Positions 37,882 to 63,076 of a stretch of DNA of 64,000 bases are shown piece after piece. Position 1 is the stretch's first letter; each line of letters starts with the position of its first letter. The stretch comes from Gammaproteobacteria bacterium (GTDB lineage Bacteria; Pseudomonadota; Gammaproteobacteria; Eutrophobiales; Eutrophobiaceae). Below the pieces are notes generated by a model. That model worked only from the letters and a program-made list of their open reading frames with translations, did not search any database and had not been told where the DNA came from. The stretch lies in the NCBI GenBank assembly GCA_965208655.1, contig CBDBPJ010000003.1, positions 449,324 through 513,323 on the forward strand. The letters are read 5' to 3'. Position numbers and translations under genes: made by a program.

Positions 37882-37886
37882 AATCT

Positions 37887-39113: not shown

Positions 39114-39121
39114 AATCCGAC

Positions 39122-39766: not shown

Positions 39767-39767
39767 T

Positions 39768-40242: not shown

Positions 40243-40290
40243 CTGGACAGTTTTGGGCGCCAACTGCTGGATAGTTTTGGATGCCAATTG
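40243..40290 (+). repeat. Two tandem 24-bp repeats (CTGGACAGTTTTGGGCGCCAACTG / CTGGATAGTTTTGGATGCCAATTG)
   Basis: Read directly, 20/24 identical. They lie about 270 bp upstream of the recombinase fragment start. Confidence 0.5.
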
Positions 40291-41484: not shown

Positions 41485-41570
41485 TGCGCGGTGACCCGCT
41501 CCAGTTCCTTGAGGATTCGTGCCTGGGAGGCGCGTTATATTGCCCATTCCGACGGTCGTCTCCTCCCCGG

Positions 41571-43864: not shown

Positions 43865-43894
43865 TTGATAATTGCGCAGTTGAGTGACTATAAT
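43865..43894 (+). promoter_or_regulatory. Sigma70-like promoter TTGATA-18 nt-TATAAT upstream of the RHH gene
   Basis: Read directly: TTGATA at 43865-43870 and TATAAT at 43889-43894, about 24 nt before the ATG at 43918. Confidence 0.45.
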
Positions 43895-43917
43895 ACCAGA
43901 CATGGGGTCCAACGAAA

Positions 43918-44112
43918 ATGGCTGAACTGGTTCGCGTGCAGGTGCTGATGCCGAAGCCACAGGCAGTTCGTTTTGATACCTATTGCCGTGATAAAGGATA
44001 CAAGAAGTCAACGCTGATCGCACGTCTCGTCCGAGAGTATCTTGACAGGGAAACTTTCACTCCACAGTCGGAACTGTTCAGTCGAGAGCAACAGGAGTTC
44101 CAAGACGTGTGA
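43918..44112 (+). CDS. Ribbon-helix-helix (CopG/Arc-like) protein, candidate controller of system B
   Basis: 64 aa. VRVQVLMPKPQAVRFDTYCRDKGYKKSTLIARLVREYL fits the beta-strand/helix/helix RHH pattern. Its stop overlaps the GTG start of dcm (GTGA). Confidence 0.6.
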   Translation: MAELVRVQVLMPKPQAVRFDTYCRDKGYKKSTLIARLVREYLDRETFTPQSELFSREQQEFQDV

Positions 44113-45680: not shown

Positions 45681-45699
45681 TCCTACAGATGCGTTAACT

Positions 45700-46191
45700 G
45701 TGGAAGACAGAGGCACAGATGTATTAACTCCAGAACAGCGTCACTTGGTGATGAGTCGGATAAGGGGCAAGGACACCAAACCTGAACTGCTAATCAGGTA
45801 TGGGCTTCACCAGCGAGGCCTGCGATACAGGCTACATGGGGCGGATATACCTGGCAAACCAGATCTGGTGTTTCCGAAGTATCGAACTGTGGTTTTTGTG
45901 CACGGATGCTTCTGGCACGGTCACGGATGCTCACTGTTCAGGTGGCCAAAAACCCGTGCAGCGTTTTGGAATTCCAAGATCAGCCGCAACATTGAACGAG
46001 ACCGGGAGGTGCGGGTTGCCTTGAAGACGGCCGAGTGGCGCTCGATTGTGGTTTGGGAATGCGCCTTGAAAGGTAAGTTCAGGTGGGCACTGTCGGATGT
46101 GCTGAGTGACGTAGAAGCCTTTATCAGGCACGGCTGTGAGTATGTTGACGAAATTGCCGAATACGAGAATATAGCCAGAAGCGCATTGTGA
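45700..46191 (+). CDS. vsr: Very short patch repair endonuclease (start uncertain; the listed ORF begins at 45604 inside dcm)
   Basis: TPEQRHLVMSRIRGKDTKPE, PGKPDLVFPKYRTVVFVHGCFWHGH, WRSIVVWECA. The in-frame GTG at 45700 lies 19 nt after the dcm stop. Confidence 0.85.
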   Translation: MEDRGTDVLTPEQRHLVMSRIRGKDTKPELLIRYGLHQRGLRYRLHGADIPGKPDLVFPKYRTVVFVHGCFWHGHGCSLFRWPKTRAAFWNSKISRNIERDREVRVALKTAEWRSIVVWECALKGKFRWALSDVLSDVEAFIRHGCEYVDEIAEYENIARSAL

Positions 46192-46319
46192 ATGTACCAT
46201 GATGGCATGATTTTCGAGGATTGCACAAATTCAATCAGGTTTTGCAATATCTCTGCATGCATTGACATGCCCGGAAGGCGCCAAGTGCCGAGTAAGTGTT
46301 GACTGCACGGGACGCAGCA

Positions 46320-47834
46320 ATGTCGAAAGCATCGAGACCGAACTTCGAGATTGCTGCCCCACCGGCATCATCAATGATCGAATCCTTGCGTGGAGTTGGG
46401 TATTCCCCCGAGACCGCAATTGCCGACTTGATTGACAACAGTATTTCCGCCCATGCACGAAACGTCTGGATCACGTTCTGGTGGGAGGGTCGCAGATCGC
46501 ACATCGCCATTCTGGATGATGGCGACGGTATGACGGAAAGCGAACTTTCCAAAGCAATGCGCCCCGGCAACATAAGTCCACTTGAAAATCGTCCAGCGGA
46601 CGATCTTGGCCGGTTTGGTCTCGGGCTAAAGACGGCATCATTCTCTCAGTGTCGGCAACTTACGGTCGCTTCGCTTCAAAATGGACAGTTCTCAACGAGG
46701 CGCTGGGATCTCGATCATGTGGCGCGGGTCGAGGAATGGCAGCTATTGAAGAGCCCTGTCTCTGGGTCCGAAGAAATTCTGAAGCCGCTCCTAAAGCTTG
46801 GCCAAGGCACAATGATTCTTTGGGAGGACCTGGATCGGGTCGTCGGAAATATTCAGACTTCAGATAGCAGTTCCCATGATCATTTCTTGAGTCTGATCGA
46901 TCGAATTGAATCGCACTTAGCAATGGTATTTCACAGATTTCTTGAGGGTGGTTCGGCGAGTTTGTCAATATTCATAAATGGAAGCGACGAAGGTCATCGC
47001 GTGAAAGCATGGGACCCCTTCATGAGAGATCACGGTGCGACTATTGCGACTCCAGAGGAACGGATAACGACTCATCGAGGAATTGTGGAGATCCAGGGAT
47101 TCGTCCTGCCACATAAGGACAACATGGCGCAGCGTCAATTCGAGACTGGTGCCGGTTTGGAGGGGTGGACGGCACAGCAAGGTTTCTACGTCTACAGGAA
47201 CAGGCGAATGCTTGTCTCGGGTGGTTGGCTGGGATTTGGGAAAAGTAAGGCGTGGACCAGGGAAGAGCCTTACAAGCTTGCCAGACTGAGGCTCGACGTA
47301 CCGAATACCGCGGATGCCGACTGGAATATCGACATAAAGAAATCGGTGGCACGTGCTCCCAGCTACATCGCGTTTCGCTTGCGCGATCTTGCCGAGCATG
47401 TACGGGATCAGGCACGGCAGGTGTTCGCTCACCGCGGAAGCTACGGGCCTCGGGTACCCACACCCGACCTGCAGAGGGCCTGGAGGGTCGTAAAGCGGAA
47501 GGAATCAACAGCCTACCTGGTGGACCGAAGCCATCCTCTCGTGAAGCAGGTGCTTGATGAGGCCGGTCCGCTCAAGGAAGCGGTGGTCGCAATGCTTCGA
47601 CTGTTGGAGGAGACCATGCCTGTGCAGCGAGTGTGGATCGATACTGTGGAAAATGGAGAGATCCACAAGGGAGCATTTGAGGGTGCCCCGTCCGCTGACG
47701 TTAAGATCGTACTAAACGTACTGTATCGTCATCTGGTCGAGACGATTGGCCTCGATAGGAGCATGGCCCGATCCCAGCTGTTGAAAACTGAGCCGTTCCA
47801 CAATCATCCGGAACTGGTTGAGTCACTCGAATAA
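46320..47834 (+). CDS. GHKL (HATPase_c_3/MORC-like) ATPase of the Z1/AIPR system
   Basis: About 504 aa from the ATG at 46320. Bergerat motifs AIADLIDNSISA, LDDGDGM and GRFGLGLKTAS. Confidence 0.8.
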   Translation: MSKASRPNFEIAAPPASSMIESLRGVGYSPETAIADLIDNSISAHARNVWITFWWEGRRSHIAILDDGDGMTESELSKAMRPGNISPLENRPADDLGRFGLGLKTASFSQCRQLTVASLQNGQFSTRRWDLDHVARVEEWQLLKSPVSGSEEILKPLLKLGQGTMILWEDLDRVVGNIQTSDSSSHDHFLSLIDRIESHLAMVFHRFLEGGSASLSIFINGSDEGHRVKAWDPFMRDHGATIATPEERITTHRGIVEIQGFVLPHKDNMAQRQFETGAGLEGWTAQQGFYVYRNRRMLVSGGWLGFGKSKAWTREEPYKLARLRLDVPNTADADWNIDIKKSVARAPSYIAFRLRDLAEHVRDQARQVFAHRGSYGPRVPTPDLQRAWRVVKRKESTAYLVDRSHPLVKQVLDEAGPLKEAVVAMLRLLEETMPVQRVWIDTVENGEIHKGAFEGAPSADVKIVLNVLYRHLVETIGLDRSMARSQLLKTEPFHNHPELVESLE

Positions 47835-47852
47835 GTCGATCAAAATCAAAGA

Positions 47853-50717
47853 ATGAGGAACAAAGTGACAAACGACTACGAAACTGTACTGGTCATGGTC
47901 CAGGCAATGATCAGGCAAAAGATGGACGATGGACCATTGTCTCGGGAGGCGATTGCCGAATCCGTGGAAAAGGTTCTTTCAATTGATCCCAGCTGGCGCG
48001 AGTCGATTGATATCGATAGTCTCGTACGTGATTTGGAAACCCGCTTCGATGTTTGGATTGGTCGAGAAACCACACTGGAGGGGAATGACGATCACGTAAG
48101 GTGGTTGGATTCAGAGCGGGCACAAGGATGGCGATACTGGCCACGGTATCGACAGTACCTCGAGAGTTCGTGGGCACCCAGCACCGTCGATTCTCTGGAT
48201 ACGGTAACCGATCGCGTTCTGTCACTCCTGGAAGATCCAAATCGGGAGGGCACATGGGACCGACGAGGGTTGGTCGTGGGGCACGTCCAGTCCGGAAAGA
48301 CATCCAACTATATAGGTTTGATTTGCAAGGCGGCCGATGCAGGTTACAAATTAATCGTCGTACTATCCGGGCTCCACAAGAATCTGAGAAGCCAGACTCA
48401 GATGCGGCTGGACGAGGGATTTCTCGGATACGAGACATTACCTCCGCAGGAAGCACACACTCAGGAATTGCGAACCATAGGAGCGGGCTTGATCGATCCT
48501 GATCCGACAATCAGGCCGGACTACGTCACGAACCGCGCCGATAATGGAGATTTCAGCCGCACCGTGGCAAACAGTCTTGGAATCAACCCGGGGGGACGCC
48601 CACTCTTGTTCGTAATCAAGAAGAACGTCAGTGTTCTCCGCAATCTACAGTCCTGGGTTGATCGGGTCGCCAACTCGAGAGAGGCAGAAACGGACCGACC
48701 TATCGTCAGAAATATTCCTCTGCTTGTCATTGACGATGAAGCTGACCTTGCCTCTGTTGACACGCATGAGCAGGATTTTGACGAGGAAGGGCGTCCTGAC
48801 CCCGAGCATGATCCTACAGCAATCAACAGACATATCCGGCGGTTTCTATTCTGTTTCGAAAAGAGCGCATATGTCGGATACACAGCAACACCGTTTGCCA
48901 ACATCTTTATCCACGAACGGGGCACAACCGCGACGGAATGGGAAGACCTGTTTCCGCGTAGCTTTATAATGACTTTGCCGGCACCGTCAAACTATATTGG
49001 ACCTGTTCGGATTTTTGGTCTGGAGCCAGACGATGATGTGTCGAATGCGGTGGAGCCACTACCGCTGTATCGTCCGGTGAGAGATCATGCTGAGTCGCTC
49101 GACCTTCGAGAGCGCAAAGGCTGGATGCCGCCTCGACACATCAACGGTCATGTTCCTAGATATGAAGGTCTAGATGATCTACCACCATCCCTTCGGCAGG
49201 CCATCTATGCGTTCATATTGTCCTGCACTGCACGTCGCGTCCGGGGACATACAGGTAAACACAACTCGATGCTTGTCCATGTGACTAGGTTTACGGTGGT
49301 ACAGCATGCTGTTTTCTCTCAGGTGGAAAGGTTGCTGCAACAGCTGCGCCGAAGAATAGTAAGAGGTGAAGGCGCTTCGAGAGCACCAACATTTACCGAG
49401 CTCAGACGAATGTGGGAAGAGGATTTCTTACCCACCACCGCCACAGTTAAGCAACAAATCGATGATTCAGAAATTGTCAATGTTTCATGGGAAGAGGTGG
49501 AAAAACACTTGATGCGCGTCATTTCCGACATTTCTGTGCGGGAAATAAACGGTACAGCGGGCGACGTACTCGATTACGACACTCACCACGCGACCGGGCT
49601 GAACGTAATCGCAATTGGTGGGGACAAGCTCGCACGCGGTTTGACACTGGAAGGATTAACTGTCAGCTACTTCCTTCGTGCGTCGCGAATGTACGATACG
49701 TTGATGCAAATGGGCCGCTGGTTTGGCTACAGGCCCGGTTATTTGGACCTTTGTCGTCTGTATACTACGCCTGATCTTGCGGAATGGTTTCAGCACATAA
49801 CGGAGGCAAGTGAAGAACTACGCCAGGAATTTGATCACATGGTTGCCGTCGGCGGGACGCCGAAACAGTACGGTCTGAGAGTCATGAGCCATCCAGCTAT
49901 GATGGTTACATCAAGGGTAAAGATGCGCCATGGCACTGCGCTTCAGCTTTCTTTTGCTCACTCCATTTCCGAGACAGTCGTATTTCACAAAGATGCTCAC
50001 AATATTTCATTGAATTTTCGTGCAACTGAAGAATTTATCCGGAAGTTGGGTTCTCCTAGTGAAACTGCTCCGACAAGATCGAGACCAAACGAGGGGACAC
50101 ATCGCTGGTCCGGTACGTACCTTTGGTCCGACGTCAGCGCAATAAAAGTCATGGCATTTCTTGATAATTATACGACGCACAACAGCGCCGTACGAGTGCA
50201 CAGCAGAATCCTTCGAGAGTTCATTCAGGCACAGGTAGAGGTGGACGAATTAGTTAGTTGGACGGTTGCGCTGATGTCGGGAGGCAGAGGTGGACAATGC
50301 ATTATCGGAGGACACAACATTGTGTTGAGCGAACGTTCGCCCAGTACCCGCGGTGGCCATCTACCAGAGACGGAACGTTACGTTATCGGGCGTTTGCTTG
50401 CCCCTCGTGACGAAGCGATTGATCTCGACCTCGTAAACTACGAGGCGGCATTGCGCATGACTATAGATGCTTGGCGAGAAGATCCAGGTCTTTCACGCAA
50501 TCAACAAGAACCTACAACGCCGTCGGGACCGAGTATCCGGGAAAAACGGAGCGCGCAAAACGGCTTGCTTCTACTCTACCCGCTGTCCCCAACCGGCGAT
50601 CATGTAGAAGGCGGCGTTCCAGTAATTGGGTTCGGCATCAGCTTTCCTAACAGCCGGAGTGCAAGGACAGTGACCTACACGGTAAACAACGTCTATTCGC
50701 AACAGGAATTCGGATAG
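47853..50717 (+). CDS. Z1-domain protein (P-loop, helicase-like NTPase)
   Basis: 954 aa. Walker A GHVQSGKTSNYIGL, Walker B LLVIDDEADLASV, and the later GGDKLARGLTLEGL and MGRWFGYR motifs that I associate with the Z1 family. Confidence 0.85.
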   Translation: MRNKVTNDYETVLVMVQAMIRQKMDDGPLSREAIAESVEKVLSIDPSWRESIDIDSLVRDLETRFDVWIGRETTLEGNDDHVRWLDSERAQGWRYWPRYRQYLESSWAPSTVDSLDTVTDRVLSLLEDPNREGTWDRRGLVVGHVQSGKTSNYIGLICKAADAGYKLIVVLSGLHKNLRSQTQMRLDEGFLGYETLPPQEAHTQELRTIGAGLIDPDPTIRPDYVTNRADNGDFSRTVANSLGINPGGRPLLFVIKKNVSVLRNLQSWVDRVANSREAETDRPIVRNIPLLVIDDEADLASVDTHEQDFDEEGRPDPEHDPTAINRHIRRFLFCFEKSAYVGYTATPFANIFIHERGTTATEWEDLFPRSFIMTLPAPSNYIGPVRIFGLEPDDDVSNAVEPLPLYRPVRDHAESLDLRERKGWMPPRHINGHVPRYEGLDDLPPSLRQAIYAFILSCTARRVRGHTGKHNSMLVHVTRFTVVQHAVFSQVERLLQQLRRRIVRGEGASRAPTFTELRRMWEEDFLPTTATVKQQIDDSEIVNVSWEEVEKHLMRVISDISVREINGTAGDVLDYDTHHATGLNVIAIGGDKLARGLTLEGLTVSYFLRASRMYDTLMQMGRWFGYRPGYLDLCRLYTTPDLAEWFQHITEASEELRQEFDHMVAVGGTPKQYGLRVMSHPAMMVTSRVKMRHGTALQLSFAHSISETVVFHKDAHNISLNFRATEEFIRKLGSPSETAPTRSRPNEGTHRWSGTYLWSDVSAIKVMAFLDNYTTHNSAVRVHSRILREFIQAQVEVDELVSWTVALMSGGRGGQCIIGGHNIVLSERSPSTRGGHLPETERYVIGRLLAPRDEAIDLDLVNYEAALRMTIDAWREDPGLSRNQQEPTTPSGPSIREKRSAQNGLLLLYPLSPTGDHVEGGVPVIGFGISFPNSRSARTVTYTVNNVYSQQEFG

Positions 50718-50722
50718 ATACG

Positions 50723-51751
50723 GTGGTTTCTGTCGGGGAAATCTGGGACGAACTGGCGACGACAAGCGATCGAGTAGCGAGGAAGGATGGATGGCATTTG
50801 CGGCGGATTTATCCGGACGCGGACAGTGACATTTTCGTTGCATTACGCCAACCTGGTGCGATACCTGCCCTGCTGGTAGAAGTTAACGCCACCGCCATAG
50901 AAGTGGTTGGGGAGTTTCCATCTGCCCGGGGATTCGAGCTTTATCCCGAGTCTGTGACACCAGGTCCTCGGGGCCGTACCAGGCTGTGCTTGGTACTCGC
51001 TGATACCCGTTATCGTGATGTCTTTGAGGTGCTCGTGAATGATGTTAGTGAAAGGACCGTACTCACACCCGGAGAAGGCGATGGCGTGAAGACATTCATC
51101 GCCAGATTACACATCTGGCAGAATTTCATGAAAAAGCATGGAGTCGAAGGGCTGACAAGAGAAGCGCAGATCGGTCTGTTTGGAGAACTGTTTTTTCTAG
51201 CGACCCATCTGGTCGATCGGCTGCCAGCTCATGATTCGGTGAAAGCATGGAAAGGGCCATGTGGAGGAAACCAGGATTTCAACCTAGAGGGGCGGTGTAT
51301 AGAAGTCAAGAGCACGACAGTTATTCCTCCTGTCACGATGAATATCTCCAACATGGCGCAACTGGACGAGACTCTTGTCGAATTGTTGCTACTCTGCCAT
51401 TTGTCGCTGGCTCTCGGTGACCGTGACGGGGAAAGCCTTCCGGAACTGGTGAAGCGACTCAGGGAAACTATACGTATTCAGGACGACTCGGCACTTGACG
51501 GTTTCAACGCAAAGCTGATTGAGGCAGGCTACCTTGATTCACATTCTGAACTGTATTCGGATACACGATACAGATACCGAAAAACATTGTTTTTCAAAGT
51601 AGCCGACAGTTTTCCACGGATAACGGCGAGCGATCTTCATGATGGAATCTCGGATTGCAGTTACGCAATTCTTCTGAATGCGTGTGTGCCCTACCAAGTA
51701 GGAGACACGGAGGCTATTGGAGCATTGTTGAATGAAAAAGAGAGGAAATGA
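50723..51751 (+). CDS. PD-(D/E)XK motif protein
   Basis: 342 aa. GGNQDFNLEGRCIEVKST provides the D-x(n)-E-x-K core. It starts 5 nt after Z1 and has a 4-nt overlap with the AIPR gene. Confidence 0.75.
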   Translation: MVSVGEIWDELATTSDRVARKDGWHLRRIYPDADSDIFVALRQPGAIPALLVEVNATAIEVVGEFPSARGFELYPESVTPGPRGRTRLCLVLADTRYRDVFEVLVNDVSERTVLTPGEGDGVKTFIARLHIWQNFMKKHGVEGLTREAQIGLFGELFFLATHLVDRLPAHDSVKAWKGPCGGNQDFNLEGRCIEVKSTTVIPPVTMNISNMAQLDETLVELLLLCHLSLALGDRDGESLPELVKRLRETIRIQDDSALDGFNAKLIEAGYLDSHSELYSDTRYRYRKTLFFKVADSFPRITASDLHDGISDCSYAILLNACVPYQVGDTEAIGALLNEKERK

Positions 51752-53817
51752 AATTGGAGCGTGAGATTCGAATATTTACGGAAAGACTGAGTTCCGAGAT
51801 TCGTGACCGAGCTATGGGTGGTGGCCCATTTGGAAAAAAGAATTTCAGGGAAAATGCGTTCACGGAAATCGTCATCGAGTATCTATCCGAGATTGGGATG
51901 GTTGAGAATGGGGAGGTTTGCTATTGTGAAACACGCGTAGGACGTGGTATCGGAAAGGTGAGTGGTTTCGGTTTCAACGACGACGAGGACACCTTGGAAG
52001 TATTCACGAGTGTCTTTCTTGATTCCAGAACGCCAGCCACACTGCCCAGTGACGATATTCGGAAAGGGGCAGAACGCGCGGCAAGGTTTGTGCAGGCATG
52101 TTTCAGTGGAGTTCATAATAATATGGAGGTCGCACACGATGCGCATGCAATGGCGTCCAGGATACATGAACTCGAAAAACAGCTCGATAGAATACGAATA
52201 TTCATCCTTTCCGATGGCGTCACCCAATTGAAGCAACAGGATGCTATGGAAATCAACGGTATTCCGGTCAAATTCGAGATTTGGGATATCGAACGACTGT
52301 TTAGAGGAATGCAGTCAGGGCTGCCTCGGGACGAGATCGAAATTGATTTCGAAGAGGTGTTCAACGAAGCGTTACCTTGCCTGACACTACCACAACCACC
52401 GAAAGACTACACAGTCCACCTCGCGATTCTGTCAGGTGACATGATTTATAGGTTATACGACGAATACGGCTCCCGACTTCTTGAGCTCAACGTCCGGTCG
52501 TTTCTTCAGGCTCGAGGAAAGGTGAATAGGGGCATCCGCGATACACTACGAGAGGAGCCAGGACGATTCATGGCCTATAACAATGGGATATCCATGACTG
52601 TTGACGAGTTGACGACCATTGTGCTTTCGGATGGACGTCCGGCCATCAAGTCGGTTCGCGGTCTTCAGGTCGTGAACGGCGGACAGACCACGGCATCCAT
52701 ATACCGCGCAAAAAAGCAGGATGGAGCAGATATCTCATCAGTGTTCGTGCCTGCGAAGATTACGACAGTTGTAGGAGAAACAGTAGATCAATTGGTTCCC
52801 AAGATATCTCGGTATGCCAACACGCAGAATGTGATCCAGATGGCTGATTTCTCAGCAAATGACCCCTTCCATGTAGAGATTGAGCGGCTTTCACAAACGA
52901 TTTGGTGTCCTGGTGAGCAGGGTCGATGGTTTTATGAGAGAGCCCGCGGCCAATATCAGGATGCCAAGGCCCGAAAAGGTACGACCCCAGCGAGAACCCG
53001 TAGATTTAATGAACAGACGCCGCCAGCTCGAAAATTCACCAAAACCGACCTTGCGAAGTTCATAACCTGTTGGAACCAGAGTCCACACCTTGTGAGCCGT
53101 GGTGCTCAGAAAAATTTTGACATCTTTATGCAGGAACTACGCGTCGGAAAGGAACAAGAATGGTTGCCAGACGAATCCTATTACAAGCTGCTAATTGCCA
53201 AGGCAATTCTGTTCAAGACGACCACACGAATTATCAGGAAAGAACAGTTTGCAGCCTATCGAGCGAACATTGTTGCATATCTCATAGCCTACATTTCTTT
53301 CCGGACTGGCGGGCAGCTTGACATGGGCCTAATTTGGCGGGAACAGGCTTTGTCTGAGGCGTTTGAGGAATTGATACGGTCGTGGTCGCACAGTATCGAT
53401 GAGGCGATCCGAAGTACCGCGAATGGTCGAAACATTACGGAATGGTGCAAGAAGGAGGATTGCTGGAAATCGATCAGTAAAATGTCTTTTCCTCTGTCCA
53501 ATCCAATCCCGCTGGAATTACAAGAGCACACCGAACCAGGTGAACACCGCGGGCGCCGTGCAACGCAGTTATCTCCCAGTGATTATGAGAATATCACCGA
53601 ATGTAAGAAACTGAATGGTGAAGAATGGTTGAAGATCCATGCCTGGGGTGTTCGTACGGGGCTGCTGGAAAACTGGCAATGCGGCATCGCGCAGACGCTT
53701 GCCGGTTATGCGGCGAATGAATGGGACCGCGAGCCTTCCCACAAACAGGCAAGACAGGGAGTTGCTATCCTGGAGATCACAAAACAGCACGAAGCCGGGA
53801 TCAACAGGACCAGCTAG
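51748..53817 (+). CDS. AIPR (abortive-infection phage resistance-like) family protein
   Basis: 689 aa. The central region RSFLQARGKVNRGIRDTL..PGRFMAYNNGIS...VNGGQTT is characteristic of AIPR proteins as recalled. Confidence 0.8.
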   Translation: MKLEREIRIFTERLSSEIRDRAMGGGPFGKKNFRENAFTEIVIEYLSEIGMVENGEVCYCETRVGRGIGKVSGFGFNDDEDTLEVFTSVFLDSRTPATLPSDDIRKGAERAARFVQACFSGVHNNMEVAHDAHAMASRIHELEKQLDRIRIFILSDGVTQLKQQDAMEINGIPVKFEIWDIERLFRGMQSGLPRDEIEIDFEEVFNEALPCLTLPQPPKDYTVHLAILSGDMIYRLYDEYGSRLLELNVRSFLQARGKVNRGIRDTLREEPGRFMAYNNGISMTVDELTTIVLSDGRPAIKSVRGLQVVNGGQTTASIYRAKKQDGADISSVFVPAKITTVVGETVDQLVPKISRYANTQNVIQMADFSANDPFHVEIERLSQTIWCPGEQGRWFYERARGQYQDAKARKGTTPARTRRFNEQTPPARKFTKTDLAKFITCWNQSPHLVSRGAQKNFDIFMQELRVGKEQEWLPDESYYKLLIAKAILFKTTTRIIRKEQFAAYRANIVAYLIAYISFRTGGQLDMGLIWREQALSEAFEELIRSWSHSIDEAIRSTANGRNITEWCKKEDCWKSISKMSFPLSNPIPLELQEHTEPGEHRGRRATQLSPSDYENITECKKLNGEEWLKIHAWGVRTGLLENWQCGIAQTLAGYAANEWDREPSHKQARQGVAILEITKQHEAGINRTS

Positions 53818-54262
53818 TCGACACTGCTGGGATTTATTATAGTACCTCGACCGCTGGCGACAGGAACTCCACGAATTTGAGCAGTTGCGCGCGATATAGT
53901 AGAAATATTCAAGTAATCGGACCGGTAAGCAACGACCTCCGTAGAGCAGGTGATGGCGAGGGAATTCAGGGCAGACATACTTCTTAATTCTTGAATACGG
54001 CTGTGATGCAAAGGCTGGCAAGAAGCGTTCTGCCTAGTTATCCTGACTACGTGATGCAACGGGGGAACCTCCTTCGGGATGTGTTCTGTTGTAAAGGCAA
54101 ATATTAGTTGAGTATTGTGTCCCCTACATTGCTAAGAATCTGAAGAAAACGTTCTGCGTCCCTGATGTCTACAGGGCTGGTATGAAAGTACGGTAAAGGT
54201 GCTCAAATAAACATCTGCGAGAACAGTGTGCAGTACCTTACATACAGTCGTATGATATAGAC

Positions 54263-55438
54263 ATGCAATTCGTACCTTTTTCATACGCCCACTCCACCGA
54301 CCTTAAGGTCGATGCTGTCTATCAAGGAGGCCGCCTGGGAAATGCTGGAGATGACCCCTTGCCTCACCTTCTTAACGTCAGCAATTCAGGAGGATTCAGA
54401 TATCGGGGTCAAGTGCACAAATTGGAACTGGTGGTTCTGACGTCTTCAGGCAAAGATCCAGACTGGCCGGACCTGCTTGAACGCGAGACCGGTATTTACA
54501 CTTACTTCGGAGACAATAAAAGACCTGGTCGAGGACTGCACGAAACCCCCAGAAAGGGGAACGAGCTTCTCCGGCGGATTTTTGATTTGGCTCATTCAGG
54601 CATTGAAGGACGTCGGCAGGTACCCCCTATATTGTTGTTCGCGAATACAGGGGAATGGAGAGATGTTGTATTTCTTGGACTTGCTGTTCCTGGCACAGCC
54701 GACCTCCGTGCATCAGAAGACCTTGTTGCCATTTGGAGAATTGCCAAAGGAAGTCGATTTCAGAACTATCGCGCCCGTTTCACAGTTCTCGATGTGTCAT
54801 TTATATCACGAGCCTGGATTGCTGATATCATCGCCGGCAATCCTCACTCTTCCAACGCACCTGAGGCGTGGTCAGCCTGGGTTCAAACCGGCCGTCCGCG
54901 CTCGCTGCTCGCCGCCAGATCATTGGAATACAGAACCAAAGGCGAGCAAATTCCAGATAACTCAATTGATCGTTCCATCTTGGAAAGAATTCACGAATAT
55001 TTCGAAAATGATTCTCACGGTTTCGAACGCTGTGCTGCTGAGCTTGCAAAACTGCTCCTCCCTGATATTGCAGAAATCGATTTGACCAGGCCTTCTCGTG
55101 ATGGGGGCCGCGATGCAATTGGTAAACTGCGTATCGGAAGCGGGGCATCCGGGATTTTGGTTGACTTTGCGCTTGAAGCCAAATGCTACGCTCTTTCCAG
55201 CGGCGTAGGTGTAAAAGGCATGTCCCGGTTGATCTCCCGGCTGCGTCACAGGCAGTTTGGCATACTGGTTACAACTAGCTATGTAAATGTTCAGGTTTAT
55301 CGTGAGATCAAAGAGGATCAGCATCCCATTATCGTTATCTCTGGTGCAGATATCGTGGCGCTATTACGAGCTGATGGCTACGCTCATCCAGAATCCGTCA
55401 GAACGTGGCTGAAGCAAAACTTTGTCCTCAATGAGTGA
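54263..55438 (+). CDS. Candidate modification-dependent restriction endonuclease: SRA/YDG-like N-domain + Mrr-cat-type PD-(D/E)XK C-domain
   Basis: 391 aa. VVLTSSGKDPDWPD...GIYTYFGDNKRPG..LHETPRKGNELL parallels the SRA pattern (SGGY.DD.D.G....YTG.GG....Q.L..GN.AL). The C-terminal part, SRDGGRDAIG...LVDFALEAKCY, supplies D...E.K. Confidence 0.5.
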   Translation: MQFVPFSYAHSTDLKVDAVYQGGRLGNAGDDPLPHLLNVSNSGGFRYRGQVHKLELVVLTSSGKDPDWPDLLERETGIYTYFGDNKRPGRGLHETPRKGNELLRRIFDLAHSGIEGRRQVPPILLFANTGEWRDVVFLGLAVPGTADLRASEDLVAIWRIAKGSRFQNYRARFTVLDVSFISRAWIADIIAGNPHSSNAPEAWSAWVQTGRPRSLLAARSLEYRTKGEQIPDNSIDRSILERIHEYFENDSHGFERCAAELAKLLLPDIAEIDLTRPSRDGGRDAIGKLRIGSGASGILVDFALEAKCYALSSGVGVKGMSRLISRLRHRQFGILVTTSYVNVQVYREIKEDQHPIIVISGADIVALLRADGYAHPESVRTWLKQNFVLNE

Positions 55439-55479
55439 ACAAGACTGGTAGCTGCTTTTCACAAAACTTGAACCAGGCA

Positions 55480-55755
55480 TCATCATGAACTTAACAGGAT
55501 CAGAGCGGAAAGATATTTCAAACAGGAGCATCAGGGAATTACCGCATTATTGAACTTGAACGGCAAGGTGGAGCGGTCACACCAAACCGACAGGACCGAA
55601 ATTCTATGCAACGGGTGGTATCACCGATGATAACCTGGAGCTGTTATTGGCGGAATGGCAATACTACCAACTGGGACCGGCCGCACAGCGCGCACATCAT
55701 GGCAAATCGCCGATGGAACGTTACTTTCAACTGGGTGATGAAACCCCTTACTCAG
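55480..55755 (+). pseudogene. DDE (rve-type, IS481/IS3-like) transposase C-terminal remnant, cut by mini-element 2
   Basis: One frame reads ...NGKVERSHQTDRTEFYATGGITDDNLELLLAEWQYYQLGPAAQRAHHGKSPMERYF, the conserved TNGKVER...H.ALGG..P end of rve transposases. Upstream frames are broken. Confidence 0.4.
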
Positions 55756-56361
55756 TGTAAAAACACAATAAAGTATCATACTCACGACATTCTATATTAT
55801 TGATTTTATTGAGTAGCTTTTTTAACAGAGCCGTAAAAGTATCATACTTTCCACTGCAGTTAGCGCCAACCTCCTAACTACGACAGACGAAAGTATCATA
55901 CTCACGCAACCCGAGAACACCTCTTCATGGCATACAAGATAAACAACAGCTATCTTCAGATTTACAAGATAGCACCCTCTCTGATACTATTAATGATAAG
56001 GTAAACAAGATGAGCACAATAGACCTCTACCAAGTACTACGCCAGATACCAAACGTAACCGAAGAACAAGCAAAGCAGGCCGCGGCCGGCGCGCAACAAA
56101 CAGGCCGTTCAGAAGGTATCGAAACGAGACTAGCTAATCTAAAGACCCAAGTGGCTGAGTTGGGCGCAGAGTTGCGGACAACGACGCGTATCATCCTGGG
56201 CCTGCTGCTCGCCGTCCTGGCAATACTGCTGGCACCACTAGTCCAATAACCACCGAAACCAAAGACCCGCACCACTATCTACTCGACTTTACAGAAGGAT
56301 GATACTTTATTGTAAAGTATGATACTTTTTTGTAAGTATGACGCTTTATTGTTTTTACACA
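55756..56361. mobile_element. Non-autonomous Tn7-like mini-element 2 (L-like end at 55756, R-like end at 56361) with 5-bp TSD CTCAG
   Basis: The termini are TGTAAAAACACAATAAAGTATCATACTCAC plus spaced repeats (55835-55850, 55891-55905) and, inverted, TGTGTAAAAACAATAAAGCGTCATACTTAC-AAAAAAGTATCATACTTTAC-AATAAAGTATCATCC (packed). CTCAG occurs at both 55751-55755 and 56362-56366. Confidence 0.65.
56010..56249 (+). CDS. Small coiled-coil protein with C-terminal TM helix carried by mini-element 2
   Basis: 79 aa. Heptad-like central region and hydrophobic tail ILGLLLAVLAILLAPLV. A diverged homologue lies in mini-element 1. Confidence 0.5.
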   Translation: MSTIDLYQVLRQIPNVTEEQAKQAAAGAQQTGRSEGIETRLANLKTQVAELGAELRTTTRIILGLLLAVLAILLAPLVQ

Positions 56362-56742
56362 CTCAGATGAAGCCTATGAACTTTATGAACCTTCTCTTGA
56401 ACGAATTCAAAACCCGAATTACAAGGTAGATTTAGAACTGAGAGAAAATTGAAACGATCTCTGTGAATCACAAATTCAAGATATCCGGCTTGGAACGACA
56501 TCTTTCTATCCCGCCCAAAGCTTCCTTTCTTTAAGCATAGCTATAATGTCTTCCAGAATACTTTTTTTCTGAGCGTCATCCTGCACGTACACCTGAAAGG
56601 CCTGCATCGTCCCTTTCTCCCCCTTGTCGAACAGATTCCCTTCGATGATAAAAGGTGTCTTTGATTCGCTCACGACTGCGCTGCAAGAGGTGTACGTCGT
56701 CATAGCTATTTGGACAGTTGTCCGCCCGATTGAAGAGACGGT

Positions 56743-57741
56743 TCAGCTCATCGGGTTGGTTGTCAGTTGTCGATCATAATGTAATTGTCGGCGCTGGGCC
56801 ATAGTATTTAATTTGATCAGGCCTCTTTCCTCTCGTATTTGCTGTCCCCTGCCATAGTACACATCTGCCGGTGTCAGGTTGTCCAGTGATTCATGATAGC
56901 GCTCGTGGTTGTAGTAGGTGACGAAGCGTTGAATATGCTCCTGTAGTTCACTGGGAAAGTAATAATTATTCAGCAAGATCTGGTTTTTCATGGAACGATG
57001 CCAGCGCTCAATCTTGCCCTGGGTTTGTGGATGGTAAGGCTTGCCTCTGGAGTGGGTCATACCGTTAGCGGCCAGATAATCGGCCAGGTCGCTCGAGAGA
57101 TAACAGGGGCCATTGTCACTGAGCAGGCGGGGTTTGTGTTTGACCTTCACCTCATCTAGCCCGGTGAAGTCCAGGGCATCATTTAAGGTATCCATGACAT
57201 CATCAGCCTTCATGCCGGTGCACAATCGCCAGGCCAGGATGAAGCGTGAGTAATCGTCCATGACGGTAGACAGGTAATACCAGCCCCAGCCAACGACCTT
57301 GAAGTAGGTAAAATCGGTCTGCCACAGGTCGTTGACTCGACGGCTGGGATGCTGGAACCTGTCTGAAGCCTGCATCAGGATATAGGCGGGGCTGGTGATC
57401 AGGTCCTGAGCCTTGAGCAAGCGATACACCGTGGACTCGGAGACAAAATAGCGGGTCTCATCCGTATAGCGAACCGCTAATTCCCGGGGTGACAGTGTCG
57501 GTTCCTTCAGCGCCAGTTCCACAATAGCAGTGCGGTGCCGGTCCGGAAGCCGGTTCCATACGGCAACAGGATGAGGGCTATTATCCGCCAGGGCATCAAC
57601 CCCACCATCGTAGTAGCGTTTGAGCCAGTTGTAGTAAGTGGAACGGTGAATAGCCAGCCGTTTGAGCGTCTGGCCCACTGAGAGGCTGGATTGTTCCACC
57701 AGTTGGAGGATCTCGTACTTCTCGGACGCTGAATACCTCAT
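56743..57741 (-). CDS. IS3-family transposase OrfB (HTH + rve integrase core)
   Basis: 332 aa. DDE core LWQTDFTY...LLSDNGPCY...HPQTQGKIERWH. Confidence 0.9.
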   Translation of the reverse strand: MRYSASEKYEILQLVEQSSLSVGQTLKRLAIHRSTYYNWLKRYYDGGVDALADNSPHPVAVWNRLPDRHRTAIVELALKEPTLSPRELAVRYTDETRYFVSESTVYRLLKAQDLITSPAYILMQASDRFQHPSRRVNDLWQTDFTYFKVVGWGWYYLSTVMDDYSRFILAWRLCTGMKADDVMDTLNDALDFTGLDEVKVKHKPRLLSDNGPCYLSSDLADYLAANGMTHSRGKPYHPQTQGKIERWHRSMKNQILLNNYYFPSELQEHIQRFVTYYNHERYHESLDNLTPADVYYGRGQQIREERGLIKLNTMAQRRQLHYDRQLTTNPMS

Positions 57742-58100
57742 ATACCGTCCTGCCCATCCCCGATTATGCTTTTTTTGAGCAGACGGTTTTCCATCACCAC
57801 TTCGGCCAGAGCTTCTTTCAGGGAAGCTGTCTCGGCTCGCAGGGTCTTGACCTCATCTGAAGTGGCTTCCCGAACGGTGTCACCCGACAGGCGTTTTTTG
57901 CCCGCCTCCAGAAATTCCTTGCTCCAGCGGTAGTACACATTGGTATTGATGCCCTCACGGCGGCAAAGCTCGGCAATACTGTCTTCGCCGCGTAGGCCCT
58001 CGAGGACAATGCGGATTTTCTCTTCGGCAGCGTATTTCTTGCGGGTATGGCGGCGAATATCACGTACCGTCTTTTCAACTTCAGGTTTTTTCTTCATCAT
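57738..58100 (-). CDS. IS3-family transposase OrfA (HTH, leucine-zipper)
   Basis: 120 aa. RKKYAAEEKIRIVLEGLRGEDSIAELCRREGINTNVYYRWSKEF; 4-nt overlap with orfB. Confidence 0.9.
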   Translation of the reverse strand: MMKKKPEVEKTVRDIRRHTRKKYAAEEKIRIVLEGLRGEDSIAELCRREGINTNVYYRWSKEFLEAGKKRLSGDTVREATSDEVKTLRAETASLKEALAEVVMENRLLKKSIIGDGQDGI

Positions 58101-58194
58101 TCTCTCCTCCGGGAGTTAACGATGAGCCAAAACCGTCTCTTAAGCAATCAGGCTATTCTGTCCAACTGGGGCTGACGGGGTACAGCACATTGGT

Positions 58195-58629
58195 TCACGA
58201 TTCATAGTCCAGTTCCATATTATAATTGTTCGGCCGTTTTACCGCCCCGCCCCCTTTTGCGGTCTCATTGTCCCATGTCAAAACACTCAGGGCGCGGAGG
58301 CGCAGCGGCCGATAAATGACGGAGCGGCGACCGTGTCCACACTTTTCGGCTAGGGTTTCATAGGATATCTGGCAATGGTTGATTTGAACGTAAAAGTTCG
58401 CGATTGCGCTCAACAGCTTTTTTTCCGTCTTAGTGGTCCTGCAGGCCGGATGACGGCTTGCCCAGGTAGCCACCTCGGACGGTGTCGCGTCGGCGCGTAG
58501 CCCCGGATAATCCCGCACCCTGGCGCCCAGGTCATCGGGCACCACGTCGTGGACGTGCAGGCCCGAGGCCCTGAGCGGAATTTGACGCGGATTTGTTTCT
58601 GGCTTAAGACTGTTCACGTAACCCTTCAT
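58195..58629 (-). CDS. Hypothetical island protein (start taken at MKGYVNSL)
   Basis: An ORF downstream of the AlpA-like gene, as is usual in P4-type islands. No confident motif. Confidence 0.35.
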   Translation of the reverse strand: MKGYVNSLKPETNPRQIPLRASGLHVHDVVPDDLGARVRDYPGLRADATPSEVATWASRHPACRTTKTEKKLLSAIANFYVQINHCQISYETLAEKCGHGRRSVIYRPLRLRALSVLTWDNETAKGGGAVKRPNNYNMELDYES

Positions 58630-58692
58630 CCAGATAACACACGTTCCTCGCCAGGAACACGAAAACCCGGTTCGCCACAACCGGGATTTCTT

Positions 58693-58899
58693 TTATGCGG
58701 GTTGAGTTTTGCGGGGTTGCGCCTGTAACCAGGCCCTTATCTCGGTCAGGTACCAGCGTGAAGACCTCCCCAGCTTTATCGGCTTCGGGAATCTGTCTTC
58801 GCTCATCATTTTGTAAATGCCGGGCCTGGACAGGCCCGTGCAGGTCATAATCGTTTTCAGGTCCACCAATGTCGGCAGGATTTCCACGGAATCACTCAT
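58693..58899 (-). CDS. AlpA-family transcriptional regulator/excisionase-like protein
   Basis: LVDLKTIMTCTGLSRPGIYKMMSEDRFPKPIKLGRSSRWYLTEIRAWL is the AlpA/Xis-type HTH pattern. Confidence 0.75.
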   Translation of the reverse strand: MSDSVEILPTLVDLKTIMTCTGLSRPGIYKMMSEDRFPKPIKLGRSSRWYLTEIRAWLQAQPRKTQPA

Positions 58900-59020
58900 A
58901 ACAAACCTCTTTGATTTGTGTCTCTGCACATCACCGGGTGCAGTTACCGAGGGGTGGAAATTTTCAATCTGATGGAGTATCAGTATAGTTGATTGTATTC
59001 CTATGTCAACAAACGTCTAT

Positions 59021-60244
59021 TCACGCCCTTTTCAGTTCAACGATTTTCGCGTCAGCGCCGGCCAGGTATTGCGCCCACTGGCTCATAAGCAGCGCTCTGC
59101 GCTGAAATAAATCGGTCCTGAAATAAGCACCTTCGACGCCCGGTACCGCGCGCGCCAACGCCGCCTCTGCGATCTCCCGGGGCTTGCCGGTATCGGCACA
59201 CCAATCGCGAAACGAACTCCGAAATCCGTGGACCGTTGCCCGATGATGATAGCCGGCGCGCTCCAACAGTTTCGCCAGCGTCATGCTCGACATCGGTTTA
59301 CCCGGCCGACGCGGCGACGGAAAAACCAGCCCGGAACCATCCGCCAGTATCCGGGCCTTGTCCAGCACGGCAACCGCGGCATCACTCAACGGTACCCGGT
59401 GCTCCCGATTCATCTTCATCCGCGTCGCCGGTATCGTCCAGGTCCGGGTCTCGAGGTCTATCTCATCCCAGGTCGTGCCCAGGACCTCACCGGTTCTGGT
59501 CGCAGTCAGTATCAGGAACCTGAACGCGAGTTCCGCGGGAACTGAGCAACTGCCGCCGCCGACGGCCTCCAGGGCCGCGGATACATCCTTGTGTGGCAAG
59601 GCCCGTAAATGCGTCTTCGCGGCCTTCTGCTTCGGCAGGGCCCCGTCAATGACCTCGCCGGCAGGGTTGGTATCAATGTAACCGTGCGCTTGCGCCCACC
59701 GGAATATTGCCTGCATGTTCTGGCGCAGGCGTCTGGCAATGTCCGGTGTCTTCGACCACAACGGCACCAGGACGTGCAGGACGTCCTCGCGGCCTACCTG
59801 GTCAATGGGAATGTGACCGATAGCAGGCCCCGCGTGCTTCTCTACAATCCGGCGCCAGGTCCAGACATTGGGACCGGCCCGCCAGCGCGGTTTCAATGCC
59901 TCCCAGGTCCTTATCGTTGCCGTTGCAAAGTCCGGTGTACGCTCCCGGCGCTTCTCCGCCAGGGGGTTCCGCCCCTCGACCCTGGCCGCGCGCTGGTTGG
60001 CCAGTGCAAGTTCCCGCGCGTCCGCCAGGCCCACGTGACGGAAACTGCCCAGGCCTATGTCATGGCGCTTGCCGTTGATCACCAGTCTCTGTACCCAGGA
60101 CTTTGAACCGGTGTACCCCACCCGCAGATAAAGAGTGTCGCCGCACCGGTATGTCCCCGGTCGCTTGATTGCTTTCGCTTCTGCCGCCGTCATTTTTCGC
60201 ATGTCTGTTCCCGGTATAGTGGTTACCCACATTTTTTCCAACAA
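59021..60244 (-). CDS. Tyrosine-type site-specific integrase (P4-like, DUF4102-type N-terminal arm-binding domain)
   Basis: 407 aa. N-terminus GTYRCGDTLYLRVGYTGSKSWVQRLVINGKRHDIGLG. The catalytic region has TATRTGE, HGFRSSFRDW and the terminal Y in GAYFRTD. Confidence 0.9.
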   Translation of the reverse strand: MLEKMWVTTIPGTDMRKMTAAEAKAIKRPGTYRCGDTLYLRVGYTGSKSWVQRLVINGKRHDIGLGSFRHVGLADARELALANQRAARVEGRNPLAEKRRERTPDFATATIRTWEALKPRWRAGPNVWTWRRIVEKHAGPAIGHIPIDQVGREDVLHVLVPLWSKTPDIARRLRQNMQAIFRWAQAHGYIDTNPAGEVIDGALPKQKAAKTHLRALPHKDVSAALEAVGGGSCSVPAELAFRFLILTATRTGEVLGTTWDEIDLETRTWTIPATRMKMNREHRVPLSDAAVAVLDKARILADGSGLVFPSPRRPGKPMSSMTLAKLLERAGYHHRATVHGFRSSFRDWCADTGKPREIAEAALARAVPGVEGAYFRTDLFQRRALLMSQWAQYLAGADAKIVELKRA

Positions 60245-60351
60245 TGAAAATTTGTGCCCCTATAGAATTTGATAGATACCCATAGAACACAGTATAAATG
60301 CAGGCGTCGGAAATGTAAAATTTTTTCTTATGTAACAGACAGTTATAGCGG

Positions 60352-61551
60352 TCAGCGTAATCCGGTGAACACCAACTCCGTTACTTCGCTGACAAACATA
60401 TTGGTGTTTACCTTGAAGCTTTTTAACCGGGCATTGGAGTGGCTGCCTACCATTTCTGCGACGGCTTCCTGGGTCTCGATTAATGCCACATGCTGACCGA
60501 GACAGGAGTATAGGCCGCCGCCAAAGTCCAGCAGATGGTGGACAACTTTCCGGGTCGGATCGTAGCGTAAGGGGTCGTCGTAAACCCTCGGGTCCCGGTG
60601 GGCCGCGGGTATCAGGTGATGGATCGGTGTGCCTTCAGGGATCAGGACTCCACCGTATTCCAGGTCTTCTGAAGCATAGCGCATCAGCGTATTGATACGG
60701 CCGGACAAACGGATTGTTTCATCGACAGCAGCCGGAATCAGTTCAGGATGATCAATGACCTGTTGCCAGCGTTGCCTGTCACTCGCAAGCCGGCCGATGA
60801 CTGTGGCGATGCCATGGGCGGTGTTGTCGGTACTGGCCTCGTTGAACATGGAGACGATGTGGAACAACTCCTGCTCACTGAAATAACCGGCCTGATGCTG
60901 GGCAATGAAATTGGCAAGGAGATTTTCCTTCGGTGCTTCCATTGCATTGTCTATGAGGCTTTGGACGTAGGGAAACAATTCATCGTAGGCAGCGATAATA
61001 CCGGGGGTAAATTCAGGATTTCTGCTGAATATCTTCAGAAGCCGGTCAGACAGGTCGGCGATCCAGGGGGCATCACTCAGCGGTGCGCCAAACCATAGAC
61101 AAAACAGGCTGGACGGGACCGAAAAAGCAAAATCGTGCAGCAGATCGGTTTCTGTGTCCGGATCTATGTTCTGCAGGAGGTCCTTGACCAGTTGCCGGAT
61201 CATGGGGCGTTGTTCTTCGATGACCGAGGCGCCGATTGCCCGTGTCAGTGCCTGGCGGATACGCGTGCGGTATGCATCCCGGCCGTGGCTTAATAACATG
61301 CATCTCTTGAATTCCTTTGCCGGTCCTTCAGGAAAGTTCATGGCCTCGACCAGGCCCATATGATCTGCATACAAGCGCCGATCCCTTAACAAGCCGACAC
61401 ATTCCTTATGTCCCAGCACTTCCAGCCCGCGGGCACTGCGGGCGAAGGGCCCCCGTTCGTGGGCCGACATGACAACAGCATCAAAATCGTCACTGGAGGC
61501 AAAGGCTGCGGTGATATCAATGGTGGGGAGTTGGTCGATGGTGAGTGTCAT
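60352..61551 (-). CDS. Cytochrome P450
   Basis: 399 aa. Heme-binding loop FGGGLYSCLGQHVA, the ExxR (ETIR) motif and the I-helix (ASTDNTA). Confidence 0.9.
   Translation of the reverse strand: MTLTIDQLPTIDITAAFASSDDFDAVVMSAHERGPFARSARGLEVLGHKECVGLLRDRRLYADHMGLVEAMNFPEGPAKEFKRCMLLSHGRDAYRTRIRQALTRAIGASVIEEQRPMIRQLVKDLLQNIDPDTETDLLHDFAFSVPSSLFCLWFGAPLSDAPWIADLSDRLLKIFSRNPEFTPGIIAAYDELFPYVQSLIDNAMEAPKENLLANFIAQHQAGYFSEQELFHIVSMFNEASTDNTAHGIATVIGRLASDRQRWQQVIDHPELIPAAVDETIRLSGRINTLMRYASEDLEYGGVLIPEGTPIHHLIPAAHRDPRVYDDPLRYDPTRKVVHHLLDFGGGLYSCLGQHVALIETQEAVAEMVGSHSNARLKSFKVNTNMFVSEVTELVFTGLR
60377..60391 (+). repeat. Candidate right att-type direct repeat (TCCGTTACTTCGCTG), inside the 3' end of the P450 gene
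   Basis: The partner of 27018-27032 (14/15 identity), about 130 bp from the integrase start codon. Confidence 0.35.
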
Positions 61552-61758: not shown

Positions 61759-62955
61759 CTAACTGCTCGCCTCCCGGATCATCTTGCGGAACATGCGTAT
61801 GCCCACGAGTTTGAGCATCAGCATTTTAAAAAAGGAAGGTCGTCCGGAGTTGGCCGCGGATACATACTCGTTGATGCCCAGTTGTTCCCGCAGGTCTTCG
61901 GACATCGCCTGCATGGGGCCGTCGGCCGGGATGCCGGTTGAATCGGCGATCCGCACCATGCGCTGGAAGTTGGATATGACCCCGGCTGTATCGATCATCG
62001 CCGCTGAACCCATTTTATCCACCAGGGCCTGGCGCGCCGTCTCCAGTTCAGCGCCATCCACGCCCATGGAGGCGTTGGTGAACTGCAGCAGTTCGCGGGA
62101 ATTCGGTATCCCCTTGATTTCCGTACAGGACGGATCGGTAAGGCCGTCGAAGTCGATGGACCCCCCTGTCAGCTCGACGCTCTCACGGAGCATCACCACG
62201 TGTGAGGCAGTTCAGTAGAAACAGCCGTTGAGTGCGGACACTCGTGCGGCCACTACCTCGGTCTGGGGACGGGTCAGGTTTCCATGAGGGGACTTGGTAA
62301 CATTCCAGACTTCACCAACCTCCAGGTAATGCGCTACGGAACTATCGAGCAGGGAACGAACTTCATCAGGCACCAGGCTGAGTGCCCGGATGACGTAGCC
62401 GCGCATATCGCCTTCCCACAGGTCGGCGTCCGGCCCGCTGTCGACCCGCGTCGGGAGTATCGGGACCCAGGCCCGGTCGTAGGCAGCATTGTCGGGACGG
62501 TATTGGTTGGGCTCGCCCGGTTGCGGATCCGGCAGTTCGTTCAGAGGCAGGCCGAGGCAGCGGCAGAATTCGTCTATGGAGAACACCGCGACCTGGGTGC
62601 CGATAATTTCAACGTACTGTTCTTCGCTGAGACCCTGCTGCATGATCCCGTCGAACCAGCTTTTGGTGAGGCGCGCCGAATCGGTGGTGACGCGGTGGAT
62701 GACTTCTAGCACGACGTCGGGAAGATCGCCGACTGTGTCATGCACCCCGTCAACCGTGTATGGAGATAACGCTTCCTTGCGCCGGCGGCAGAGATTGCAT
62801 TGCTGCGAATGGCGGATTTCCCTGGCTATGTCGACCCGTTCGGCGCCCGTGAACCAGTTACCCGGTGCAGCCAGACGCTGCCAGTAACGATTATGACTTG
62901 CTGCGAAGTTCTCGCGCACCGGCCAGGGCGCATTGCTATAGTCAATCTTGCTCAT
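61759..62955 (-). CDS. AhpD/carboxymuconolactone decarboxylase-like protein with in-frame UGA (62212-62214) at the CxxC position: candidate selenoprotein (CFYU)
   Basis: The two listed ORFs (62212..62955 and 61759..62199) are in the same frame, separated only by TGA plus 4 codons. The joined sequence reads ..VSALNGCFY-U-TASHVVML.., which superimposes on the AhpD-family signature N.C.YC...H. Confidence 0.6.
62165..62208 (-). promoter_or_regulatory. Candidate bacterial SECIS hairpin just downstream of the UGA
   Basis: The mRNA reads UGA ACUGC CUCAC ACGUGGUGAUGCUCC GUGAG AGC. This gives a 5-bp stem starting 6 nt after the UGA with a G/U-rich loop containing GGUG. The fold was judged by eye only. 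Confidence 0.3.
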
Positions 62956-63076
62956 TTGCAGGAATTCTCCCTGATCCTACAGGTTGCGTCAATGCAGTCA
63001 GGCAAATTTGGGACACCCATAAATTTACATTAATCCGAAATTTATGGGTGTCCCAAATTTACACTGGCCCCTGGTA

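Follow-up and report, generated by a model that had tools for sequence, protein, structure and literature searches.

An AhpD-related gene with an in-frame UGA, very probably a selenoprotein gene of the NF041238 family, in a gammaproteobacterial genome

Introduction

In AhpD of M. tuberculosis, the catalytic set is formed by Glu118, Cys130, Cys133 and His137. AhpD-like and CMD-domain selenoproteins, in which selenocysteine (Sec) is part of a CxxU motif, were described from the Sargasso Sea in 2005 (PMC1088965) and in the GOS survey of 2008 (PMC2398784). The same Sargasso Sea selenoproteome included a "hypothetical protein 1", a family of four sequences with a conserved CXXU that was reported without functional evidence (Zhang, Fomenko and Gladyshev 2005, PMC1088965). 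A 2026 review cross-lists this protein with NF041238 (PMC13188914), an NCBIfam equivalog model for an "alkylhydroperoxidase-related (seleno)protein", and our literature search found no experimental work on the NF041238 family.

Here, we analyzed a stretch of 64,000 nucleotides of a gammaproteobacterial genome (contig CBDBPJ010000003.1), referred to below as the window. An original prediction, made from the letters of this DNA, had proposed an AhpD-like gene near one end of it, with an in-frame UGA at the place of a redox-active Cys. We consider it very probable that positions 61759..62955 of the minus strand form one gene for a 398-residue NF041238 selenoprotein, whose UGA at 62212..62214 is decoded as Sec. 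The family to which the gene belongs has been known since 2005, and NCBI already curates it.

Results

A single reading frame with one internal TGA

The complete gene occupies one frame of 398 codons on the minus strand (61759..62955), which closes on a TAG stop and whose translation is interrupted only by a lone TGA at 62212..62214. As ordinary open reading frames, it falls into two pieces: a minus-strand ORF of 247 aa (62212..62955), with the C-terminus AARVSALNGCFY followed directly by the TGA, and an ORF at 61759..62199 on the same strand, in frame with the first and separated from it by the TGA and four codons. This is the arrangement given in the original prediction, whose coordinates and sequence features for the pair proved correct, and the CNLC motif that it had placed in the N-terminal half was found at residues 53-56 (62788..62799, minus strand).

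In a G+C-rich window, such an arrangement is common. A mechanical six-frame scan returned ~70 in-frame TGA junctions between long open stretches, so that a junction of this kind means little alone. The one at 62212..62214 is the sole junction of the ~70 that has a redox-motif context or joins two parts of one annotated gene, and it stands out because the family model and the Pfam CMD domain both cross the stop and because every related locus read preserves both the TGA and the frame beyond it, as described below.

Upstream of the gene, a consensus scan found a promoter-like site, TTGACG-17 nt-GAGAAT, at 62964..62992 on the minus strand, its 3′ end lying 8 nt before the ATG. The same hexamers also precede the gene in related loci L001-L013. 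From its sequence, this site might act as the promoter, and the selenoprotein mRNA may have a very short leader or none at all. At 63004..63060, in the gap separating the selenoprotein gene from the TonB-receptor gene, lies a 23-bp perfect inverted repeat, AAATTTGGGACACCCATAAATTT, with an 11-nt spacer; the window has a single copy of it. One to three copies or variants of it are present at the same place in L001, L003, L004 and L018, and it is absent from L002, L007, L010 and L011. This repeat could represent either an operator or a small insertion element of palindromic structure.

Family assignment and Cys-containing homologues

When the stop was replaced by Cys in the joined protein, the NF041238 model (AhpD_rel_CFYUT) matched it with an E-value of 1.2e-141 and 472.1 bits against a cutoff of 175. 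The match extends over residues 13-365 of the protein and over 1-356 of the 357 model positions, thus crossing the TGA. Pfam CMD (PF02627) was also found across the UGA, at residues 220-258 (29.4 bits, gathering score 23). In contrast, the short AhpD-like model TIGR01926 scored 37.6 bits against a cutoff of 81.8, and the model for AhpD proper, an alkylhydroperoxidase acting as AhpC reductase (TIGR00777), reached 13.3 bits against a cutoff of 191.95. Because both scores fall far below their cutoffs, the protein is AhpD-related but is neither AhpD nor a classic short AhpD-like selenoprotein. That AhpD-like proteins are a known selenoprotein family, as the original prediction had stated, holds for the present one: NF041238 is curated, carries the CFYUT motif in its name and is listed in the 2026 review (PMC13188914).

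The window protein is like NF041238/hypothetical protein 1 in its length class, its C-F-Y-U-T motif, its Sec/Cys alternation and its coverage of the full-length model. Nothing substantial sets it apart from this family; its basic, hydrophobic C-terminal tail (residues ~370-398) is present in some members only. It also resembles AhpD-like 1 and AhpD-like 2 (TIGR01926/COG2128, PMC2398784) in having a CxxU within a domain of the CMD/AhpD fold and in being abundant in marine metagenomes. However, those proteins are single-domain and have ~180 residues, whereas the window protein is twice as long and has an extra N-terminal helical half with its own CxxC.

A search of a collection of 5.8 billion proteins gave 2006 matches, and nearly all of the best 120 were 245-250 aa long, covering 62% of the query. 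These homologues look truncated in the protein databases because gene callers stop at the TGA. The expectation that standard gene callers would split or truncate the gene was therefore well founded, as the databases carry the 247-aa product and nearly all of the best 120 relatives end there. Among the same 120 were four proteins of 376-382 aa (P0017-P0020; 52-55% identity, 93% query cover) that read C-Y-Y-C-T-S-G-H opposite the C-F-Y-TGA-T-A-S-H of the window, and their similarity to it runs ~120 residues past the TGA (e.g., GLTDPxCTE and NFQRMxRIADxTGxP). Aligning the joined protein with Cys homologues, a check proposed with the original prediction, thus put a Cys in the UGA column, with similarity unbroken across the TGA.

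An alignment of 23 full-length forms (26-55% identity) has five invariant positions, E233, N243, C245, C248 (the Sec column) and H252, and C53, C56, H72 and H87 are conserved in at least 90% of the same sequences. The UGA codon, which would specify U248, hence aligns with an invariant Cys. It belongs to the motif C245-F-Y-U248-T-A-S-H252 (62200..62223, minus strand), in which the Cys forms of the family read CFYC or CYYC, and C53-N-L-C56 makes up a second conserved Cys pair. The proposed position of the UGA, at the second redox Cys of the CMD signature with the downstream His retained, is borne out by the Cys found in that column of the full-length homologues and by the invariant H252.

We also searched the representatives of 50%-identity clusters exhaustively with the Cys form P0017, which gave 1457 relatives. 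Among the best 150 of these, 91 end directly after Cxx (72 of them after CFY) and 22 are full-length with CxxC. As judged from these sequences, the Sec form predominates in the NF041238 family, and gene callers routinely cut such putative Sec forms short.

Conservation of the TGA and of the frame beyond it

Two sets of related loci were gathered at the DNA level, 17 from genomes that represent species, all of them MAGs of Gammaproteobacteria with identities of up to 95%, and a further 80 from metagenomes (51-91% identity). A TGA stands at the same codon in all 95 readable sites, a count biased towards Sec forms because the queries for both sets were truncated forms or the CFY motif. Where the contig extends to the next stop, the frame stays open for 118-157 codons past the TGA, except in L084, where it closes after 30 codons. 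In gap-free pairs with the window, dN/dS was 0.03-0.19 downstream of the TGA and 0.10-0.14 upstream. At the DNA level, homologues thus continue beyond the UGA, and it is only in protein databases that they end at this position, which the original prediction had named as an outcome that would speak against it.

The same loci bear on whether the TGA could be a true stop, leaving either a truncated gene or pseudogene, or two genes of 247 aa and 146 aa, the second starting from the GTG at 62199. Gene callers and protein databases do list the 247-aa product, and in the window this GTG lies only four codons past the TGA, but the conserved sequence begins before any possible start. The Thr and His at +1 and +4 after the TGA are invariant among the related loci and precede any start codon, and in ~40% of the loci, the first in-frame ATG, GTG or TTG is found 10-65 codons past the TGA, so a separately initiated second gene cannot explain the conservation. 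A stop here would also sever the catalytic His of the CxxC-x3-H motif from its Cys, while the full-length Cys homologues are single proteins. Moreover, the TGA persists among proteins of 50-95% identity, with the sequence on either side of it under purifying selection, and a conserved RNA hairpin follows it at SECIS distance. Taken with these observations, a true stop appears extremely improbable, and we retain the reading as one selenoprotein gene.

Two tandem selenoprotein paralogues were seen in L015 (~6747 and ~8088), each with an in-frame TGA and a SECIS-like hairpin. An NrtS-like small membrane protein gene (NF038050, 64 bits) lies immediately upstream on the same strand in L080 (407..916), and such an upstream gene was found in 21 further loci of this branch of the family, most of them from metagenomes of soil and sediment. 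The window lacks a gene of this kind, but its protein ends in the basic, hydrophobic tail described above.

A conserved SECIS-type stem-loop downstream of the UGA

The sequence following the UGA can form a stem-loop at 62175..62195 (minus strand), GAUGCUC-CGUGA-GAGCGUC, with a stem of 7-8 bp (U-GAUGCUC/GAGCGUC-G) and an apical loop of 5 nt, CGUGA, which has a G in second position and starts 24 nt past the UGA. According to the published bacterial SECIS rules, the apical loop has 3-9 nt with a G in its first two positions, the upper stem has 4-16 bp, and the distance from UGA to loop is 16-37 nt (PMC13188914). The hairpin agrees with these rules for loop, stem and spacing. It is like the E. coli fdhF-type SECIS in being a coding-sequence hairpin just past the UGA, at the expected distance and with a G-U in a small apical loop, but has no sequence similarity to it and is supported here as an upper stem with its loop.

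To compare this element among relatives, we used a gap-free alignment (A3) of 67 distinct 45-nt sequences from the UGA onward, in which the helix corresponds to columns 20-27 paired with 33-40. Its six core pairs (columns 22-27 with 33-38) are kept in 65-67 of the 67 sequences (98-100%), with exchanges that preserve pairing: columns 22-38 hold CG in 35 sequences, AU in 25, GU in 4 and GC in 1, and columns 24-36 hold GC in 53, GU in 12 and AU in 2. In register, 88.8% of the cells are paired, against 26-53% when the register is slid, and the RNAalifold consensus fold independently gives the core helix at the same place. Constraint was also visible in codon usage. In a set of 81 distinct sequences, most codons nearby have a synonymous diversity of 0.5-0.7, which collapses at codons +6 to +12: Leu+8 is CTC in 80/80, Leu+7 is CTG in 44/44, Ala+10 is GCG in 45/45, and Arg+9 is encoded by CGT (71 sequences) or CGG (10).

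The SECIS call is a comparative one, because single-sequence folding of the 37-81 nt past the UGA gave energies no better than those of shuffles (z +0.23 to -1.09). No Rfam family matched, either in the whole window at gathering scores or in 62100..62300 at E-values up to 10.

A different hairpin had been put forward in the original prediction as the SECIS, CUCAC with GUGAG across a 15-nt loop. These two arms exist, at 62202..62206 and 62182..62186, and 89.0% of the cells of this helix (columns 9-13 with 29-33) are paired in the 67-sequence alignment, one pair switching between UA (25) and GC (31). However, its pairs are broken in 11-23 of the 67 sequences (columns 10-32 in 11/67, columns 12-30 in 23/67), synonymous variation is mostly normal at codons +1 to +5, among them those of its 5′ arm (0.67, 0.30 and 0.50 at +2 to +4), and both its loop of 15 nt and its spacing of 10 nt from the UGA break the published loop and spacing rules (PMC13188914). 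It is absent from the RNAalifold prediction, and the minimum-energy fold of the window sequence holds the 62175..62195 helix instead, with which the CUCAC/GUGAG helix is mutually exclusive and which is better supported. Hence, while a hairpin does follow the UGA as predicted, the one named is not the conserved element, and it is very unlikely to be the SECIS. We take the stem-loop at 62175..62195 as the candidate SECIS.

A divergent member of the family in L038 (~3744) reads CFY-TGA-GTGH, and its sequence after the TGA could not be aligned with the family SECIS. This locus may use a different SECIS element.

Predicted structure and active site

As a structural proxy, we modeled the Cys homologue P0017, which is 54% identical to the window protein, from the 23-sequence alignment. 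The model is all-helical (pLDDT 90, pTM 0.91). Foldseek searches of the PDB with this model returned 2prr, 3c1l, 2pfx, 6k40 and 2oyo, with target-normalized TM-scores of 0.65-0.71 over ~200 columns, and the E-values of these AhpD-core matches are weak, 5e-3 at best. A PDB sequence search aligned only residues 209-272, around the motif (E ~3e-4). Based on the homologue model, the window protein is probably all-helical, with a C-terminal half formed by an AhpD/CMD-type domain.

Over its whole length, P0017 weakly matched Sestrin2 (query-normalized TM 0.43, probability ~0.9, E 0.26-1, RMSD ~15 Å). Sestrin2 consists of two AhpD-like halves.

With E233 (codon at 62257..62259, minus strand), the motif has the spacing Glu-x11-Cys-x2-Cys-x3-His. 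We take E233-x11-C245-x2-U248-x3-H252 to correspond to the AhpD catalytic set, in which case Sec would sit at the nucleophilic Cys. The protein thus resembles M. tuberculosis AhpD and the AhpD-core "peroxidase-related" proteins in this spacing and in the all-helical fold of the homologue model. It differs from them in that the similarity is limited to ~50 residues around the motif and in that Sec would replace the second Cys, and an AhpC partner is not evident near the window gene. The protein is most likely a putative thiol/selenol oxidoreductase that would cycle through a selenenylsulfide.

Sec machinery genes and gene neighborhood

The window encodes further selenium genes, located far from the gene under study. 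A selA gene for selenocysteine synthase is found at 10145..11539 (plus strand; TIGR00474, 596 bits against a cutoff of 268), and SelD is encoded at 5186..7453 (plus strand) as a fusion to an N-terminal pyridine nucleotide-disulfide oxidoreductase domain (TIGR03169, 505 bits; TIGR00476, 303 bits). The original prediction had noted selA and selD in this DNA, and both are there, the latter within the fusion protein. This SelD fusion resembles the Ndh-SelD fusion of the GOS survey (PMC2398784). Two genes of selenoneine biosynthesis lie between them, senB (7524..8492, minus strand) and senA (8603..9919, plus strand), so 5186..11539 is a compact selenium locus combining selenoneine genes and the Sec synthase gene, which apparently share one SelD. 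An NCBIfam scan of 30 long ORFs of the window gave no match to selB, and ARAGORN found no tRNA or tmRNA genes in the window, tRNA-Sec included. In Gammaproteobacteria, the tRNA-Sec gene selC may lie inside selB (PMC13188914).

That selB and tRNA-Sec were not seen within the window would fit a UGA that is read through without Sec, either by near-cognate insertion of Trp or Cys or through a locally reassigned code. Yet TGA is the commonest ordinary stop in the window, ending 10 of the 19 confidently identified genes, and the code is therefore not reassigned. In addition, the residue aligned in homologues is a Cys in a redox motif, a classic Sec/Cys pair, selA is present and adjoins the gene in related genomes, and the SECIS-type hairpin is conserved. 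Against this evidence, reading through without Sec is hardly credible, and decoding of the UGA as Sec remains our preferred explanation.

In eleven related loci, the gene directly downstream of the selenoprotein gene is selA. Eight of the genomes examined (L006, L007, L009, L010, L012, L013, L014 and L019) have the selenoprotein gene followed by selA and senA on the opposite strand and then by senB, and the sequence retrieved for six of these eight also shows the selD fusion after them. In L007 and L010, the selenoprotein gene is closely preceded by a TonB-receptor gene. The window has the same selenium genes in the same relative orientation, but ~50 kb (11572..61551) separate selA from the selenoprotein gene. 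As selA adjoins the gene in related genomes and ~50 kb intervene here, the selenoprotein gene was ancestrally part of the selenium locus.

The ~50-kb interval holds aromatic-catabolism genes and is partly mobile DNA. It contains an IS21 transposase (29027..30217), cytosine methylase and restriction genes (34439..37881), an MZA anti-phage system (46296..53817), an IS481 transposase (56743..57741) and a P4-type integrase (59021..60244, minus strand), and resembles DNA that entered the selenium locus by one or more insertions. No tRNA or tmRNA gene accompanies the P4-type integrase within the window.

The next gene downstream of the selenoprotein gene encodes a cytochrome P450 (60352..61551, minus strand), and this neighbor is common only to the closest relatives (L001, L003, L008 and L017). 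The bmp cluster of Bmp8, a CMD-fold debrominase, also encodes a cytochrome P450, Bmp7. Bmp8 is a weak fold match. As the P450 neighbor is confined to these four closest relatives, we did not retain a Bmp8-like role for the selenoprotein.

Discussion

In the mechanism that we propose, the UGA at 62212..62214 would be read as Sec during translation, and the signal for Sec insertion would be the coding-sequence stem-loop at 62175..62195. By analogy with E. coli, SelB carrying Sec-tRNA(Sec) would bind this stem-loop, and the selA and selD genes of the window would supply the Sec-tRNA. The predicted active site would comprise C245-x-x-U248 together with H252 and E233, with Sec in place of the nucleophilic second Cys of AhpD, and the protein would act on its presumed substrate as a thiol/selenol oxidoreductase via a selenenylsulfide. 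Its N-terminal half carries the second conserved CxxC pair, along with conserved histidines.

A more specific role can be imagined, in which the NF041238 protein is a working part of the selenium locus and acts on a selenium compound rather than in general peroxide defense; for example, it could reduce or traffic selenoneine, its oxidized forms, or selenide. The adjacency to selA, senA and senB in eight genomes, the two helical halves, of which the C-terminal one matches AhpD-core structures, the weak whole-length match of the model to Sestrin2 and the second CxxC/His cluster are compatible with such a role, which we nevertheless regard as rather unlikely.

For annotation, the two ORFs are to be merged into one selenoprotein gene, with the SECIS at 62175..62195. 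Metagenomes from the sea and from soil are very rich in members of the NF041238 family, which are mostly miscalled as a 247-residue protein. The thread of interest in this family is its tight linkage to selA and to the selenoneine genes, together with its N-terminal CxxC domain.
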